DNA from: Escherichia coli
GTDB lineage: Bacteria; Pseudomonadota; Gammaproteobacteria; Enterobacterales; Enterobacteriaceae
DNA length: 64,000 bases
Direction: 5' to 3' (one strand)
Assembly: GCF_011045215.1 (NCBI RefSeq)
Contig: NZ_CP049201.1
Shown here piece by piece: positions 39,466-64,000 of this stretch. The notes under the pieces were generated by a model. It had not been told where the DNA came from. It did no database searches and was given only the letters and a program-made list of their open reading frames with translations. Each line of letters begins with the position of its first letter. Position 1 is the stretch's first letter. Made by a program: the position numbers and the translations under genes.

Positions 39466-39837
39466 AGCTCCTCCTTAATGACAGGGTTGCGAAGCCCTGA
39501 TTCTCTTCAGGGTGAATATTAAAGATAACACAAACATCGCGTAACGATTTGATAACAACCCAAATTGATAAAAGAGGAGAAACCTTGTGGCAAAGCAAAT
39601 GACAACCCCGCCGCAGCGGGGTCAAGGATCAGTGAGTAATGATCCAGAGGAGTTCGGCCCAGAAGAGCATCGACAGAGAAAACGCGCCCATCCAGGACCA
39701 ATATTTCATATTTGTGTTGATCATAGGCTACACCCTTAACGGTTATTACTTTGTGTTGAGATAACTCAACCTGTTATTGCTGCGGTGTATTAAAAGCCCT
39801 GTAATTCATTAAAAATGGGTAATAAGAATGATGATAA

Positions 39838-52214: not shown

Positions 52215-52259
52215 ATGAAAGCAATTTTCGTACTGAAAGCTTGGTGGCGCACTTCCTGA
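52215..52259 (+). CDS. trpL: trp operon leader peptide (14 aa, tandem Trp codons)
   Basis: ATG AAA GCA ATT TTC GTA CTG AAA GCT TGG TGG CGC ACT TCC TGA = [14 protein letters not shown]. Confidence 0.95.
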   Translation: [14 protein letters not shown]

Positions 52260-52299
52260 AACGGGCAGTGTATTCACCATGCGTAAAGCAATCAGATAC

Positions 52300-52329
52300 C
52301 CAGCCCGCCTAATGAGCGGGCTTTTTTTT
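52300..52329 (+). terminator. trp attenuator (3:4 terminator hairpin)
   Basis: CAGCCCGCC-TAAT-GAGCGGGC followed by eight T residues. Confidence 0.95.
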
Positions 52330-58915: not shown

Positions 58916-59261
58916 ACTTTCTTTAACGAAGCCGGAAAAATCCTAAATTCATTTTATATTTATCTTTTTACCGTTTCGCTTACCCCTGTCGAACGTCAAC
59001 TTACGTCATTTTTCCGCCCAACAGTAATATAATCAAACAAATTAATCCCGCAACATAACACCAGTAAAATCAATAATTTTCTCTAAGTCACTTATTCCTC
59101 AGGCAATTGTTAATATATCAAGAACGTTCCTCATAATATATTTTCCCACTTTCTTCTCGTTACGCTTAATTTGACTAATTCTCATTAGCGACTAATTTTA
59201 ATGAGTGTCGACACACAACACTCATATTAATGAAACAATGCAACGCAACGGGAGAAATAAC

Positions 59262-59441
59262 ATGGCCGAACATCGTGGTGGTTCAGGAAATTTCGCCGAA
59301 GACCGTGAGAAGGCATCCGACGCAGGCCGTAAAGGCGGTCAGCATAGCGGCGGTAATTTTAAAAATGATCCGCAACGCGCATCTGAAGCGGGTAAAAAAG
59401 GCGGTCAACAAAACGGTGGTAATAAATCAGGTAAATCCTGA
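59262..59441 (+). CDS. yciG: Small Gly-rich stress protein (KGG repeat)
   Basis: ORF trimmed to MAEHRGGSGNFAED start (59 aa), GGAG RBS 7 nt upstream. Confidence 0.88.
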   Translation: MAEHRGGSGNFAEDREKASDAGRKGGQHSGGNFKNDPQRASEAGKKGGQQNGGNKSGKS

Positions 59442-59526
59442 TTCACCGTTAATTATTAATATCAGCTGATAAAGATAATTGCATCTGCGGGCCGTATGGC
59501 TCGCAGTGATTCCACTGGAGAAAAAT

Positions 59527-60027
59527 ATGAATATGAAGACCATTGAAGATGTATTTATTCACCTGCTTTCAGATACCTACAGCGCAGAAAAACAATTAAC
59601 CCGGGCACTGGCAAAACTCGCAAGAGCAACATCAAACGAAAAATTAAGTCAGGCTTTTCATGCGCACCTCGAGGAAACACATGGACAGATTGAACGTATT
59701 GATCAAGTTGTGGAATCAGAATCGAATCTGAAAATTAAGCGCATGAAATGTGTGGCAATGGAAGGTCTTATTGAAGAAGCTAATGAGGTCATCGAAAGTA
59801 CCGAGAAAAACGAAGTGCGTGATGCCGCACTGATTGCCGCAGCACAGAAAGTCGAGCACTATGAGATTGCCAGTTACGGGACATTAGCGACGCTGGCTGA
59901 ACAATTAGGTTACCGTAAAGCAGCGAAGCTTCTGAAAGAGACCCTGGAAGAAGAAAAGGCCACCGACATCAAACTGACTGATCTGGCCCTTAATAACGTA
60001 AATAAGAAAGCCGAAAATAAAGCCTGA
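59527..60027 (+). CDS. yciF: DUF892 ferritin-like stress protein
   Basis: ORF trimmed to MNMKTIEDVFIHLL start (166 aa). Confidence 0.92.
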   Translation: MNMKTIEDVFIHLLSDTYSAEKQLTRALAKLARATSNEKLSQAFHAHLEETHGQIERIDQVVESESNLKIKRMKCVAMEGLIEEANEVIESTEKNEVRDAALIAAAQKVEHYEIASYGTLATLAEQLGYRKAAKLLKETLEEEKATDIKLTDLALNNVNKKAENKA

Positions 60028-60072
60028 AATATGAACTTTAACTTTTAGTCATTTTATAAAGAGGACATTTTC

Positions 60073-60579
60073 ATGAATCGTATTGAACATTATCATGACT
60101 GGTTACGTGACGCCCATGCAATGGAAAAGCAAGCCGAATCTATGCTTGAATCCATGGCCAGCCGTATAGATAATTATCCTGAACTACGTGCTCGTATTGA
60201 ACAACATCTTAGTGAAACCAAAAACCAGATTGTTCAACTGGAAACTATTCTTGATCGTAATGACATTTCACGTTCAGTCATTAAAGATTCCATGAGTAAA
60301 ATGGCTGCGCTTGGGCAGTCAATCGGTGGTATATTCCCTTCTGATGAAATAGTCAAAGGCTCTATTAGCGGATATGTCTTCGAGCAATTTGAAATCGCCT
60401 GTTACACCTCTCTATTAGCAGCAGCAAAAAATGCCGGTGATACAGCCTCAATTCCGATCATCGAAGCGATTTTAAATGAGGAAAAGCAAATGGCCGACTG
60501 GCTGATTGAGCATATTCCGCAAACAACTGAGAAATTTTTAATTCGATCTGAAACTGATGGCGTAGAAGCGAAGAAATAA
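60073..60579 (+). CDS. yciE: DUF892 ferritin-like stress protein
   Basis: 168-aa ORF MNRIEHYHDWLRDAHAMEKQAE. Confidence 0.92.
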   Translation: MNRIEHYHDWLRDAHAMEKQAESMLESMASRIDNYPELRARIEQHLSETKNQIVQLETILDRNDISRSVIKDSMSKMAALGQSIGGIFPSDEIVKGSISGYVFEQFEIACYTSLLAAAKNAGDTASIPIIEAILNEEKQMADWLIEHIPQTTEKFLIRSETDGVEAKK

Positions 60580-60603
60580 TACCCTTTATGCCATGTCCTT
60601 ATT

Positions 60604-60630
60604 GACCCCGTATATTACGGGGTCGTTTTT
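60604..60630 (+). terminator. Rho-independent terminator after yciE
   Basis: GACCCCG-TATATTA-CGGGGTC followed by GTTTTT. Confidence 0.85.
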
Positions 60631-60638
60631 GTGCGGAA

Positions 60639-60761
60639 TTAAAAACGATATCCTGCTGAGAACATAAACACCCACGGATCGAGGCGTACGCTATCGTGTT
60701 GCTGTGCACCGCCCAGCTTATAATTGGCGGTGGTATCGATATCCATGTACCAGACTGACAT
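60639..60761 (-). pseudogene. ompW: 3'-terminal remnant of the outer membrane protein W gene (last 40 codons)
   Basis: Minus-strand translation MSVWYMDIDTTANYKLGGAQQHDSVRLDPWVFMFSAGYRF-stop matches the OmpW C-terminus; an in-frame stop lies directly upstream (60765-60767), so the N-terminal about 170 codons are absent. Confidence 0.85.
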
Positions 60762-60948
60762 GTTTTAAAAAATGAAATAAGACATTGTATCTGAAAGAAA
60801 AAACAGGATTTTGAGGCGCTTTTTTATACCGTTTCTCCGTGTTTTTAACTGCCTGATTTTATTGAAATCTTTTTTAGTTTTGCAGAAAGGATTTTTTGCT
60901 CGATCGTTTTAATTTTATACATTCCTGATAACGGAAATTTTTTTGCCG

Positions 60949-60978
60949 TTGACAGTTTTTGTTCTCCGGGGCTATATT
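60949..60978 (+). promoter_or_regulatory. Predicted strong sigma-70 promoter inside the prophage terminus
   Basis: TTGACA (60949-60954), 18-nt spacer, TATATT (60973-60978). Confidence 0.55.
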
Positions 60979-60984
60979 CCTCAC

Positions 60985-61064
60985 ACAACCGCAAAATCGG
61001 TTGTCGGGATTGGCGTCCCGGATGTTTACGGAGCGATATAAGACGCGCCCGCGTCTTTTTTCAT
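60985..61064 (+). ncRNA. Candidate prophage-encoded small RNA (about 80 nt: two stem-loops, single-stranded AU-rich tract, intrinsic terminator)
   Basis: Stem-loops ACAACCG-CAAAAT-CGGTTGT (60985-61004) and CGGGA-TTGGCG-TCCCG (61005-61020); terminator AAGACGC-GCCC-GCGTCTT plus TTTTC (61040-61064); no ORF with an RBS. Confidence 0.4.
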
Positions 61065-61224
61065 ATCGTTTGCACAGTCACATTCGCGATTTATGGCGGG
61101 CTGTGTGGGGGAGCCGAAAGGCTCGCCGGTTTCCGTACCCGGTTACGCCAACCCTGCACAGTTCGCCACCAGTTCGATTGGCGTCGTCGGTGGCGATAAT
61201 TTCCAAATGTACGGAGTTATCGTT

Positions 61225-61788
61225 ATGACCACTCAGATTTCTGTCGAAACTCTTTCCCCGATTACACACAATCAAATTCCCGTTATCACTACCGAGTTGC
61301 TGGCGCAGCTTTATGGCACGGACTCAGATAACATCAAAAAGAATTATTCGCGCAACGCAGATCGCTTTTGTGAAGGTAAGCACTTTTACAAGGTGATTGG
61401 CGATGAACTAAAGAATTTGCGGGTGACTTTAAGTCACTCACAAAATCCCATCTCTCCCAAAACTCGCTCCCTCATCCTCTGGACAGAACGCGGCGCAGCC
61501 CGCCATGCCAAAATGCTCGAAACCGATCAGGCGTGGGAAGTGTTCGAAAAACTGGAAGACTGTTATTTCAGCCATAAACAACCACCAGCAACACAAAACT
61601 CCCCCACCCCAAATGATGGATGCGCATTACTGATCCACTTCGATAAACACGGGCAGGTCGAGTTCACGGAAAAAGTCCCCGCCGATGCGATGGTATGCAC
61701 TCTGGAACGGTTTAAATTTTATCTGGAGCAACATGGGTGGATCGTTGCCCGTAAAGAACAATTGGTAGAAAGGTTGATGCGGTTTTAA
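61225..61788 (+). CDS. Prophage accessory (moron) protein with phage antirepressor-like N-terminal domain (ORF6N/Rha/KilA-N type, unverified)
   Basis: 187-aa ORF MTTQISVETLSPITHNQIPVITTELLAQLYGTDSDNIKKNYSRNADRFCEGKHFYKV; GGAG RBS 8 nt upstream; the ORF-track start at 61093 rejected (no RBS, GC-rich structured region). Confidence 0.6.
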   Translation: MTTQISVETLSPITHNQIPVITTELLAQLYGTDSDNIKKNYSRNADRFCEGKHFYKVIGDELKNLRVTLSHSQNPISPKTRSLILWTERGAARHAKMLETDQAWEVFEKLEDCYFSHKQPPATQNSPTPNDGCALLIHFDKHGQVEFTEKVPADAMVCTLERFKFYLEQHGWIVARKEQLVERLMRF

Positions 61789-61796
61789 TGAATGCA

Positions 61797-61826
61797 AAAC
61801 CCCGGATGATCACCGGGGTTGATTTT
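61797..61826. terminator. Bidirectional terminator between the moron gene and tfa
   Basis: AACCCCGG-ATGATCA-CCGGGGTT followed by GATTTT. Confidence 0.75.
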
Positions 61827-62403
61827 ATCGAGGATGATTGCCGCTAATCGTCATCTCTCTGATTGAGAGTAAATCATCCAAGTTATTCAGCTCTTGCTTC
61901 ATCTCCCGCTGGCGGCGATAAATCTCGTCATTGCGATCGACCTGCGCCTGAACCATTGCAGTAAGCAGCTCATCCAGTTGTTGCATTGACAACTTTACCT
62001 GCTGATTTTCCGCATCGCGCCATACCATGGTTTTCCGTGCCGTGACTGATTTTGCTGATATCACCACCGGGTAAAGACGGGCCATCGAATCCGGTCCCCC
62101 GTTCCAGCTATGACCGTTCCATTCAAAAATGAATGGCTGCGCCTCCTGCTCTGTACGCCATGCTTCAATTTCCCGGCGTTTGGCTGCTTTTGCTGCTTCC
62201 AGCATCTCTGGCGTGACGGTGAACGGCGTTATTTCTCCCCACTTGCCGCTTTGCAGTTCCTGCCAGACTCGCTGCCCTGTCTCTGCTGTATCCGTGGCAG
62301 TTGCCGTATACGGAACCGGTTCATCCATGCCATCAAACAACACCCCGCAGTCAATCGCGCCATTTTCAAGATAACGCGCATTTTCGATGCGTTTTATTTC
62401 CAT
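61825..62403 (-). CDS. Putative tail fibre assembly/chaperone protein
   Basis: 192-aa ORF (ATG at 62403, AGGTG RBS) starting 8 nt after the stf stop; MEIKRIENARYLENGAIDCGVLFDG...; not the lambda Tfa family as far as I can judge. Confidence 0.5.
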   Translation of the reverse strand: MEIKRIENARYLENGAIDCGVLFDGMDEPVPYTATATDTAETGQRVWQELQSGKWGEITPFTVTPEMLEAAKAAKRREIEAWRTEQEAQPFIFEWNGHSWNGGPDSMARLYPVVISAKSVTARKTMVWRDAENQQVKLSMQQLDELLTAMVQAQVDRNDEIYRRQREMKQELNNLDDLLSIREMTISGNHPR

Positions 62404-62410
62404 AAAACAC

Positions 62411-63835
62411 CTACGCAATACGTATGAACAAACCAATCATGACACTGGCTGACCCGGCAGACCCGAGTTCATCGCCTGACAGTGCACGATATGACCCCGG
62501 CATACCACCACCAGAACCCCGCACATATACGGAAACGCTGCCGTTATATCCAACCCCGCTACCGGTCGTGCCGTAACACATAAATTCAACCGCACTCAGG
62601 CGTGACCCCGGATAACTGTAACCGCGCTTTATCCGGCGGTCGGTGTCTGCGTCTCCCTTACCGTTATAAGCCGCCAGTACAAGACTGCCTGCACCGTACC
62701 AGCCGTCCGTGGTACCGGGAGCAATACCGGACAGAAGAGAGATAATGTCCTGTGAGGTAATCTTCAGATTTTCCCAGCCAGTCAGATAACCATTACCTGT
62801 TGTCCAGTAGCGGCTGTAATAAACATCGCCATTGATACCGTAGAAAATAATGGCCTTTGGTGTATATCGCGGTTCCGGTGGATTATTGCGTGCCTCAACC
62901 CACCGGATGCTGACCACCCCGTTAAACAACACACCTCCGGATATGATTTTACTGCCACCCTCAACAAAATATTCACCCGGCGTCGCATTCCTTACCCATG
63001 CCAGAAAATCATCCTCTGTGTTAAAACGGATGCGTTCTGCGGGCAGAAAAATATGCCCAAAACCAAATGCGCCAGGTGTCGCCAGACGGCCTTCAGTCCG
63101 GTCGCGAATGTCGCTCTGTGGCGTCATTGTGGCTGCGCTTTTCAGTCCAAGATTATCACGGGATTCCTGCTGAGCCTCTTCACCTTCATCAGCCAGCTCT
63201 GATAAACGATTCGCCGTTTTCAGTGTCGCAGATAACGCGGTGTCAATATCCTCCCTGACATGCTCTGCATCAGATGCAGCCTGTTTAGCAGCTTCAGCGT
63301 CCTTTTTTACCTCCTCGGCGGCATTCTCAACCTGTGAGACCAGATTTTCGGCCTGTTGTTTACCCTCCGCAACCGCGTCGGCGTTCTGCTGAACACCTTC
63401 CGCCAGTTTTTTTACCTCTTCTTTTTCCCGAGCGGCAGCGTCTGCATGTTGCCCTGCCTGTCGTTCGCTTTCTGTTGCAGTTTCCGCGCTCTGCTGCGCC
63501 TGCGCCACCAGTTCTTCGAACCGCTTAACAACATCCGGCTTCAGGTCGCCTTCATCGAGGGCAGTCAGAAAGTCGTTCAGCGTGCCAGGCTTTGAGTCGT
63601 CGTAAACCGAAATATCACCGACACAGTATTCCCTTTCAATACACGACCGAAGATAAACGTCATATTTTCCGGTCTGAGCTTCAAAAGCATATTCTCCTGC
63701 CGGACCTGTCACCACTGTCGCCACCGTTCTCATGACCACTGCGGATGTATTCTGTCTGGCTTTCAGAATAATATGGTATCCGGACATGGGGAGTCCCGCG
63801 CCATCCGTCAGCACACCCGAAATTAATACAGACAT
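62411..63835 (-). CDS. Side tail fibre protein (lambda Stf-like N-terminus, Ala-rich coiled-coil middle, Gly-rich C-terminal domain)
   Basis: 474-aa ORF MSVLISGVLTDGAGLPMSGYHIILKARQNTSAVVMRTV...VYDDSKPGTLNDFL aligns by eye with lambda Stf MAVKISGVLKDGTGKPVQNCTIQLKARRNSTTVVVNTV...VYEDSQPGTLNDFL. Confidence 0.85.
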   Translation of the reverse strand: MSVLISGVLTDGAGLPMSGYHIILKARQNTSAVVMRTVATVVTGPAGEYAFEAQTGKYDVYLRSCIEREYCVGDISVYDDSKPGTLNDFLTALDEGDLKPDVVKRFEELVAQAQQSAETATESERQAGQHADAAAREKEEVKKLAEGVQQNADAVAEGKQQAENLVSQVENAAEEVKKDAEAAKQAASDAEHVREDIDTALSATLKTANRLSELADEGEEAQQESRDNLGLKSAATMTPQSDIRDRTEGRLATPGAFGFGHIFLPAERIRFNTEDDFLAWVRNATPGEYFVEGGSKIISGGVLFNGVVSIRWVEARNNPPEPRYTPKAIIFYGINGDVYYSRYWTTGNGYLTGWENLKITSQDIISLLSGIAPGTTDGWYGAGSLVLAAYNGKGDADTDRRIKRGYSYPGSRLSAVEFMCYGTTGSGVGYNGSVSVYVRGSGGGMPGSYRALSGDELGSAGSASVMIGLFIRIA

Positions 63836-64000
63836 TTTTATTTCCTGATTCAGAAAACATTAACCAAAATAATTGACGCCTTTTTTCTTGCCACTGGCTT
63901 TCCCCTTTGCAGAAATATCCGTGGCCAGCGACAGATTCAGCGAAAATCCCTGCACCGGTGACAACGAAAATTCCACTGACTCTGCCTGCCAGTTATGGTC

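Follow-up and report, generated by a model that had tools for sequence, protein, structure and literature searches.

An IsrK-family RNA ahead of a C4 RNA and an ORF6N antirepressor gene at the end of an Escherichia coli prophage

The locus at the prophage end

The window analyzed here is a 64,000-nucleotide stretch of Escherichia coli DNA that includes one end of a prophage. The genes ahead of the element are trpA, yciG, yciF, and yciE. A 40-codon open reading frame at 60639–60761 on the minus strand, assigned from the ORF list and the RefSeq annotation of E. coli C5, is a 3′ fragment of ompW; in C5, RefSeq describes the same stretch as an incomplete OmpW family protein whose N-terminus is missing. 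This fragment forms the chromosome/prophage junction, and the prophage is taken to have inserted in ompW because the fragment abuts the element. Neither a tRNA nor a tmRNA that might represent an att remnant occurs at or near the site. The cassette described below begins ~190 bp inside the prophage, with its promoter the same distance (~190 bp) downstream of the junction, and it faces the tail-fibre-assembly and tail-fibre genes (61825–63835) in convergent orientation. Both the adjoining ompW fragment and these tail-fibre genes agree with a preliminary description of this DNA, which had placed the element at a prophage end.

The promoter, an IsrK RNA, a C4 RNA, a leader, and the antirepressor gene ant make up one transcription unit, and the element of the preliminary description is therefore its first third. 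All cassette features named below lie on the plus strand. The sigma-70 promoter (60949–60978) consists of TTGACA at 60949–60954, an 18-nt spacer, and TATATT at 60973–60978, and matches the consensus at 11 of 12 positions in a promoter scan. It is the sole match of at least 11/12 on both strands of the 64-kb window; shuffled windows yield 0.67 such matches on average, so the match by itself is weak evidence. The near-consensus promoter of the preliminary description is nevertheless present as described, and TTGAC, the 18-nt spacer, and TATATT or TATAGT are kept in all 37 distinct homologous modules. A third stem, formed by the promoter-spacer CCGGGG and the 3′ strand of the second downstream hairpin, was considered by eye, and the evidence for it is not convincing.

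The gene ant (61225–61788) encodes a 187-residue antirepressor with an ORF6N domain. Its product matches Pfam ORF6N with an E value of 1.8e-20 and, over its full length, PHROG 2379 (anti-repressor) with an E value of 3.9e-89. It shares 54% identity with STM2616/AnrP of Gifsy-1, and the first 27 residues of the two proteins are identical. A Shine-Dalgarno sequence, GGAG, at 61213–61216 precedes the ATG at 61225 by 8 nt. The 51 nt between the end of the C4 match and this ATG hold no separate ORF, and the icd gene that immI carries between C4 and ant is absent from this interval. Downstream of ant, a terminator scan marks a terminator-like hairpin at 61798–61820, between the convergent ant and tail-fibre-assembly genes.

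The element is of an already known kind that is very common in E. coli and recognized by Rfam. With 60949–61224 as the blastn query, a related module is found in about half of the complete E. coli genomes (2636 of 5426), in up to six places per genome. In other modules, the downstream genes encode either small Icd-like proteins or antirepressors, the latter from several families, and in Stx phages the module is located in the nin region. RefSeq leaves the cassette RNAs unmarked: where anything is annotated beneath them, it reads “hypothetical protein”, “ash family protein”, or pseudogene, and the identical locus in E. coli C5 carries pseudogene calls only and no RNA feature. Scans of raw sequence will therefore find these RNAs again and again.

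The IsrK and C4 RNAs

A covariance-model scan of 59000–64000 gives three plus-strand matches, all repeated when the whole window is scanned. They correspond to isrK, c4-a1b1, and C4, lie in the right order on one strand, and all exceed their gathering scores. The isrK model (RF01394) is matched in full, over model positions 1–77, scoring 75.2 bits where the gathering score is 50, with an E value of 2.3e-15. The c4-a1b1 model (RF03163) matches 60972–61024, overlapping the isrK match, with a marginal 48.6 bits against 46.7. The element is a member of both isrK and c4-a1b1, and this family assignment is close to certain. The preliminary description, which matched it to no named RNA family, had proposed a search of Rfam; that search proved productive, returning these two families and C4 downstream, so the lack of a named match does not stand.

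The IsrK small RNA spans 60985–61061, a length of 77 nt assigned by homology and consistent with the Rfam match and the covariation of its helices. Its 5′ end is placed at the start of the Rfam model and would thus lie 7 nt past the −10 hexamer. Folding of 60985–61066 produces hairpin 1, hairpin 2, an unpaired tract, and a terminator hairpin with U6 (minimum free energy of −27.6 kcal/mol, z = −2.07); the two stem-loops, single-stranded tract, and U-run terminator drawn in the preliminary description are all recovered by the fold and the terminator scan. The same work had seen no supported ORF in these ~80 nt, and this is borne out. A coding reading of the segment was rejected, as the overlapping ORFs are mechanical TTG-start frames only.

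Hairpin 1 (60985–61004) has a 7-bp stem and a CAAAAU loop and is found by the fold, by Rfam, and by covariation. All of its alignment cells are paired (100%), and four of its pairs show changes on both sides. The loop motif GCAAAAUC is invariant across homologs, and no partner was found for it. Hairpin 2 (61005–61020), which is part of the Rfam c4-a1b1 match, displays in its loop a site that is discussed below. When the three IsrK helices are compared across 20 homologs, 94.7% of positions pair and seven pairs are altered on both sides; none of 500 shuffles reaches the observed values, and slid controls pair at 30–44%.

The terminator (61040–61063) is a short intrinsic one, with a 6–7-bp stem, a GCCC loop, and a U-run. 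The terminator scan marks 61040–61057 plus the T-run, and the fold shows a GC-rich hairpin followed by six U. In the 37 homologs, every terminator hairpin is short (−7 to −10 kcal/mol), and T6 follows in most. By analogy with the Gifsy-1 homolog, for which partial read-through has been demonstrated (PMC4825925), the IsrK terminator is probably leaky.

The isrK layout, in which two hairpins at the 5′ end precede an open tract and a Rho-independent terminator within ~77 nt, is present here, and the position also agrees, upstream of a region of the orf45/STnc1160 type and of an antirepressor gene on the same strand. IsrK was mapped in Salmonella as a 77-nt RNA (PMC2330248), and the Gifsy-1 homolog is a 77-nt species whose 3′ end falls at the corresponding terminator (PMC2330248, PMC4825925). 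Together with the full-length, above-threshold isrK match, this makes a discrete phage-encoded small RNA, as the preliminary description proposed, very probable. Read-through, or a role as leader of the gene at 61225, had been named there as grounds for giving up that proposal. The two are not exclusive, as both coexist with the short RNA in the Gifsy-1 archetype, and by this analogy the element may serve the antirepressor operon as its 5′ leader while also yielding a small RNA.

The C4 antisense RNA (61089–61173) starts 28 nt downstream of IsrK and matches RF01695 with 77.6 bits against a gathering score of 45. Its minimum-energy fold is the structure of the model: a long stem closes the RNA, two hairpins lie inside, and the 3′ end reads CCACC. 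By homology to P1 c4, whose ends are taken from the record annotation, the mature RNA would extend from about 61095 to 61170. The preliminary description had overlooked this C4 RNA, as well as its connection with the ORF6N gene for an antirepressor that starts at 61225.

Pairing sites and their covariation

Two stretches of IsrK and two of the ant leader, named here after the sites of P1 as a1, b1, a2, and b2, are each complementary to one of two C4 segments, a′ or b′. Site a′ (ACGCCAA, 61145–61151) is a single strand of C4, whereas b′ (UUCCGUA(C), 61131–61138) occupies the loop of its second internal hairpin. The loop of IsrK hairpin 2 presents a1 (UUGGCGU, 61010–61016), which forms a 7-bp duplex with a′ at −11.9 kcal/mol. 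Just 3′ of this hairpin, b1 (UACGGAG, 61027–61033) forms a 7-bp duplex with the b′ loop at −8.5 kcal/mol; it lies in the tract that the preliminary description had called AU-rich. This is the arrangement of c4-a1b1, whose second hairpin bears a1 and is followed closely by b1, both sites being complementary to a downstream C4. In the ant leader, a2 (UUGGCGU, 61178–61184) sits in the loop of a CCACC…GGUGG hairpin and pairs with a′ over 7 bp at −10.3 kcal/mol, while b2 (GUACGGAG, 61209–61216) includes the ant Shine-Dalgarno GGAG and pairs with b′ over 8 bp at −11.2 kcal/mol. Because b2 contains this Shine-Dalgarno, the b1 tract closely repeats the ribosome-binding region of ant. A C4 RNA structure, with a2 and b2 downstream of it and b2 over a ribosome-binding site, is also what defines immI in these respects.

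The four duplexes measure 7–8 bp at −8.5 to −11.9 kcal/mol. Minimum-energy cofolding of C4 with IsrK or the leader does not recover the loop contacts; the method does not model kissing interactions. Duplexes at the level of the sites, combined with covariation, were used for this reason. All four sites covary with their C4 partners. A first sample comprised 80 viral loci fetched through the Ant protein, and the 330 nt upstream provided 37 distinct whole-cassette modules. These contain seven a types and ten b types in 16 combinations. Cognate duplexes average −8.9 to −9.9 kcal/mol, compared to −3.9 to −5.3 kcal/mol for non-cognate ones, i.e., they are better by ~5 kcal/mol, and for the four site pairs 0, 0, 7, and 1 of 20000 permutations reach the observed energy.

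A second sample, independent of the protein, was collected from viral contigs with a DNA pattern located in hairpins 1 and 2. Its 62 distinct combinations draw on 17 or more a types and 46 or more b types. Cognate helices average 7.0–8.5 bp versus 4.4–5.2 bp for non-cognate helices, and for each of the four site pairs none of 5000 permutations reaches the observed energy. In the five viral contigs with two modules, the modules always differ at one site or more. A variant of the pattern with N7 spacing in place of N6 gave mostly chance matches and 18 real modules of a more distant subfamily.

Since the three copies of each site covary, IsrK is tied to its own C4 and leader and not to a conserved, unlinked target. 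The exposed regions of IsrK are its most variable parts and only the hairpin-1 loop is invariant, which is not the seed conservation expected of an RNA that has unlinked mRNA targets.

A proposed decoy for C4 and its relation to known systems

The unit is probably isrK acting as the first element of an antirepressor cassette of the P1 immI/Gifsy-1 isrK–anrP type, in which C4 blocks ant and IsrK competes for C4. Transcription would begin near 60985 from the single, constitutive-looking promoter at 60949–60978. The majority of transcripts would end at the short terminator to give the 77-nt IsrK, and the remainder would read through into C4, the ant leader, and ant. In P1, C4 is freed from its precursor by RNase P, and its translational block is followed by Rho-dependent polarity. 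Here, C4 is presumably excised from the read-through RNA as in P1, after which its b′ loop and a′ single strand would pair with b2 and a2 of the leader. Ant would then go untranslated, because b2, once paired with C4, holds the ant Shine-Dalgarno. IsrK would serve as a second copy of the target, with a1 in the hairpin-2 loop and b1 in the open tract. As the bearer of such a copy, it is therefore proposed to compete for a′ and b′ of C4, whether C4 is processed or still within the long transcript, and to relieve the block. Whether the antirepressor is made would depend on how much short IsrK there is relative to C4.

Several of these steps are carried over from homologs, namely the short RNA with read-through, the activation of ant translation by IsrK in trans, and repression by C4. 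The anrP gene of Gifsy-1 is transcribed from the isrK promoter but not translated; when IsrK is provided in trans, an anrP translational fusion rises 139-fold, and the IsrK point mutations G28A and G31A abolish this activation (PMC4825925). Compensatory pairs were obtained for G28:C162 and G31:C159 (PMC4825925). When the numbering is mapped, G28 and G31 fall in a1 (UUGGCGU), and C159 and C162 in a′ (ACGCCAA) of the C4 match, so the Gifsy-1 compensatory mutants test the a1:a′ contact. A stable STnc1160 species, dependent on the isrK promoter, lies downstream of IsrK in Gifsy-1 (PMC4825925). For P1, competition of a1/b1 with a2/b2 for C4 was proposed by Citron and Schuster (1990), whose idea is cited in the supplement of PMC2864571; the same supplement defines the two-hairpin a1b1 motif. 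We infer that the same events occur in this prophage, with titration of C4 as the operative step, and the 5′ end, the termination efficiency, and the processing of C4 at this locus are likewise projected from the homologs. A finding against simple titration is that constitutive co-expression of orf45/STnc1160 strengthened IsrK toxicity in Gifsy-1 (PMC4825925), which is not what repression by C4 and its titration by IsrK predict. The marginal c4-a1b1 score, the loop contacts missed by cofolding, and a published Gifsy-1 model that differs in detail also count against the decoy reading.

In that published model, IsrK opens an inactive fold of the unprocessed long mRNA, which allows translation of a 45-codon ORF (orf45) and, by translational coupling, of anrP (PMC4825925). 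Taken literally for the window, IsrK would bind the unprocessed mRNA and free the ribosome-binding site of a small ORF that starts at ATG 61093, ant would be coupled to that ORF, and a separate C4 would play no role. Mutational, gel-shift, and 30S footprint data from Gifsy-1 speak for such a switch (PMC4825925). ATG 61093 is the counterpart of the first AUG of orf45, falls inside the C4 match, and is conserved in all homologs, and the frame that it opens in the window continues into ant. That frame lacks a stop, however, and would give an N-terminally extended Ant rather than coupling. Across 26 distinct homologs, the ORF varies from 14 to 45 or more codons and stands in varied frames relative to ant, and only those of the Gifsy-1 type end in an AUGA overlap. 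The nucleotides of orf45 score instead as a C4 RNA with covarying structure, and the Gifsy-1 authors themselves note that the nucleotide sequence is conserved and the amino acid sequence is not (PMC4825925). Two further points weigh against the switch: b2 lies on ant's own Shine-Dalgarno, and the mature C4 of P1, per the record annotation, starts at the G of this AUG, so processing would split off the AU and remove the start codon. As a conserved gene, orf45 (the C4 region) is ruled out by its varying length and frame. The evidence favors selection on the RNA and is still compatible with use of the AUG by ribosomes in Gifsy-1, and the literal switch is an unlikely account of the window.

A plain attenuator, with a terminator that serves only to reduce transcription of ant and a short RNA that is an inactive by-product, is improbable to a greater degree. 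The terminator is indeed short (−7 to −10 kcal/mol), and in Gifsy-1 the same promoter serves ant (PMC4825925), but an RNA without activity would have no need to keep a1 and b1 matched to C4 across the a and b types of the second sample, nor does inactivity suit the 139-fold activation in trans of the Gifsy-1 fusion and its loss with G28A and G31A (PMC4825925). Less probable again, if only by little, is the preliminary description's independent Hfq-dependent sRNA with the open tract as a seed for unlinked host or phage mRNAs, which draws on the promoter, hairpins, open tract, and U6 terminator and on the Rfam title “isrK Hfq binding RNA”. The Gifsy-1 IsrK, however, is reported to work independently of Hfq, at its own locus and on the mRNA made there by read-through (PMC4825925), and the open tract and hairpin-2 loop change with the adjacent C4 and ant leader through 62 combinations. 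Such co-change leads one to expect a cassette-internal partner and not a seed that a conserved host target keeps constant, although additional targets may exist.

The decoy reading can be extended, tentatively and with doubts that exceed our confidence, to a joint view of two literatures. Gifsy-1 IsrK/orf45(STnc1160)/anrP and P1 c4/a1b1/ant would then be one system, with orf45 a C4 RNA and not a conserved coding gene, and IsrK the long-hypothesized a1/b1 decoy freed by a leaky terminator; in combination, the a and b sites would address each antirepressor cassette at the RNA level and separate those of one cell or prophage. What joins the two literatures is that the proven G28:C162 and G31:C159 pairs are the a1:a′ contact of a P1-type C4. 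In the literature searched, IsrK and C4 systems are described side by side, and no paper linking them was found; a 2025 review takes IsrK and c4 in succession, unlinked, and the terms “phage P1”, “Citron”, “immI”, and “RNase P” are absent from the text of PMC4825925. These correspondences suggest that the Gifsy-1 “orf45” region deserves re-examination as a C4 RNA. For the window itself the consequence is small, as its element is one more ordinary member of an RNA family already described; the remaining interest lies in a unified description of IsrK and C4 and in the combinatorial a/b code. If the joint view holds, a single shared site would permit cross-talk between prophages at the RNA level, and if the code insulates co-resident cassettes, it would represent a simple, designable RNA specificity system for the control of prophage induction.

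Among known systems, the Gifsy-1 IsrK locus, which lies between STM2617/antQ and STM2616/anrP, is the same as the window in the order and spacing of all parts and gives the same three Rfam matches. Shared parts include the TTGACA-18-TATATT promoter, the GCAAAAUC hairpin-1 loop, a hairpin 2 with UUGGCGU, the terminator, a C4-like RNA, the leader, and the ORF6N antirepressor with its identical N-terminal 27 residues. The a specificity (ACGCCAA/UUGGCGU) is common to both, whereas the b specificity differs, being UUCCGUA/UACGGAG in the window and CGGUGAU/UCACCG in Gifsy-1. The two also differ in the orf45 frame, which is fused in-frame to ant in the window and ends in an AUGA overlap in Gifsy-1, in the absence of isrJ after ant in the window, and in the 54% overall identity of Ant. 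Moreover, the window cassette lies at the prophage end by tail-fibre genes, while that of Gifsy-1 lies between Q and the lysis genes.

The immI region of P1 and P7 has one promoter, a two-hairpin a1/b1 leader, C4, a2/b2, and an antirepressor, with b2 at a ribosome-binding site and specificity residing in a few bases of a′ and b′. P1 immI gives C4 and c4-a1b1 matches, its record lists promoter, a1, b1, c4, a2, b2, icd, and ant in that order, and it resembles the window further in a hairpin followed by AUUUUUG between b1 and c4. The isrK model scores below threshold on P1. In P1, the ribosome-binding site covered by b2 is that of icd, to which ant is coupled, whereas ant follows directly in the window; P1 also possesses a second promoter controlled by a C1 operator, and the Ant proteins belong to different families. 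By this analogy, the cassette is predicted to work like P1 immI, with the exception of icd.

Two other systems are more loosely related. The CI RNA of P4, with seqA and seqC, is likewise a small RNA cut from the leader of an operon under its own control, with complementary target copies on both sides, and the Gifsy-1 authors regard SeqA as a structural homolog of IsrK (PMC4825925); as described there, it differs in causing premature termination of transcription of the replication genes rather than a Shine-Dalgarno block. AgvB and AsxR, the sponges of EHEC prophages, are also short phage RNAs that mimic the target of another regulatory RNA (PMC12197685). They counter the host core sRNAs GcvB and FnrS and are described with Hfq, whereas the RNA titrated here would be encoded by the cassette itself.

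Junction with the chromosome and other RNA features of the window

The prophage is integrated within ompW, of which only the final 40 codons are left (60639-60761, minus strand). Between this remnant and the isrK promoter lie 187 bp of AT-rich DNA devoid of ORFs (window 60639-60948, remnant included). Rfam also matches the enterobacterial sRNA STnc180 (39595-39797, minus strand) and the trp operon leader (52236-52329, plus strand), both of which are chromosomal features and expected.

Relatives and diversity of the module

The closest genome is that of E. coli C5 (locus L001, NZ_CP010122.1), whose RNA region is identical to that of the window and whose annotation marks ant as frameshifted. Its tail-fibre-assembly gene is split into two inverted fragments that adjoin hyaA and a tRNA-Ser gene; this arrangement suggests that the C5 locus is a rearranged prophage remnant. 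As a separate observation, PP818812.1 (hit H16), a record named Actinobacillus phage vB_Apl-pPE4, carries a module 90.7% identical to that of the window, an odd degree of identity for the stated host; the modules of E. coli Stx phages fall far below it, at about 77%.

The IsrK-C4 head is common to unrelated downstream genes (loci L153-L272), which encode ORF6N antirepressors, Bro-N/Ant-type antirepressors, or small Icd-like proteins of 60-80 aa. Environmental viral contigs (L089, L094, L099, L101, L111, L118, and others) contain a subfamily that is more distantly related. One additional base lies between its hairpins 1 and 2, and its hairpin 1, hairpin 2, b1, and terminator are laid out as in the other modules.

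Five prophage contigs carry two cassettes each: L005 with L010 (IMGVR_UViG_2537561934_000012), L196/L197, L169/L170, L184, and L227/L228. At least one site differs between the paired cassettes in all five. On one of these contigs, the terminal copy is identical to the window from C4 through the leader to the start of ant, and the internal cassette has the same b' and a different a'.

Conserved segments and the fold of the ant leader

Promoter spacers usually vary freely; the 3′ part of the isrK promoter spacer (window 60963-60972), TCCGGGGC, is kept in nearly all of the 37 homologs aligned over the whole cassette. This segment and the 3′ strand of hairpin 2 are complementary; the segment may correspond to the occasional "third stem" noted by Weinberg et al. 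(2010) or to an operator. The hairpin-1 loop motif GCAAAAUC (window 60991-60998) is unchanged across every enteric module examined, and no partner complementary to it was found in C4 or the leader; P1 has GCAAAUUC at this position.

When the ant leader is folded alone (window 61193-61222), an upstream UUCC pairs with the Shine-Dalgarno GGAG, and the first half of b2 (GUAC) remains in the loop. This predicted position would suit a loop-loop contact with b' of C4.

The frame from ATG 61093 and its counterparts

ATG 61093 lies inside the C4 RNA and opens a frame that runs stop-free into ant, giving a 231-aa ORF (61093-61788, plus strand). Among the homologs, the frame from the matching ATG varies and extends for 14 to 45 or more codons. 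ATG 61093 is the counterpart of the orf45 start in the Salmonella prophage Gifsy-1. In P1, the 5′ end of the mature C4 lies within the equivalent AUG, after its U and before its G.
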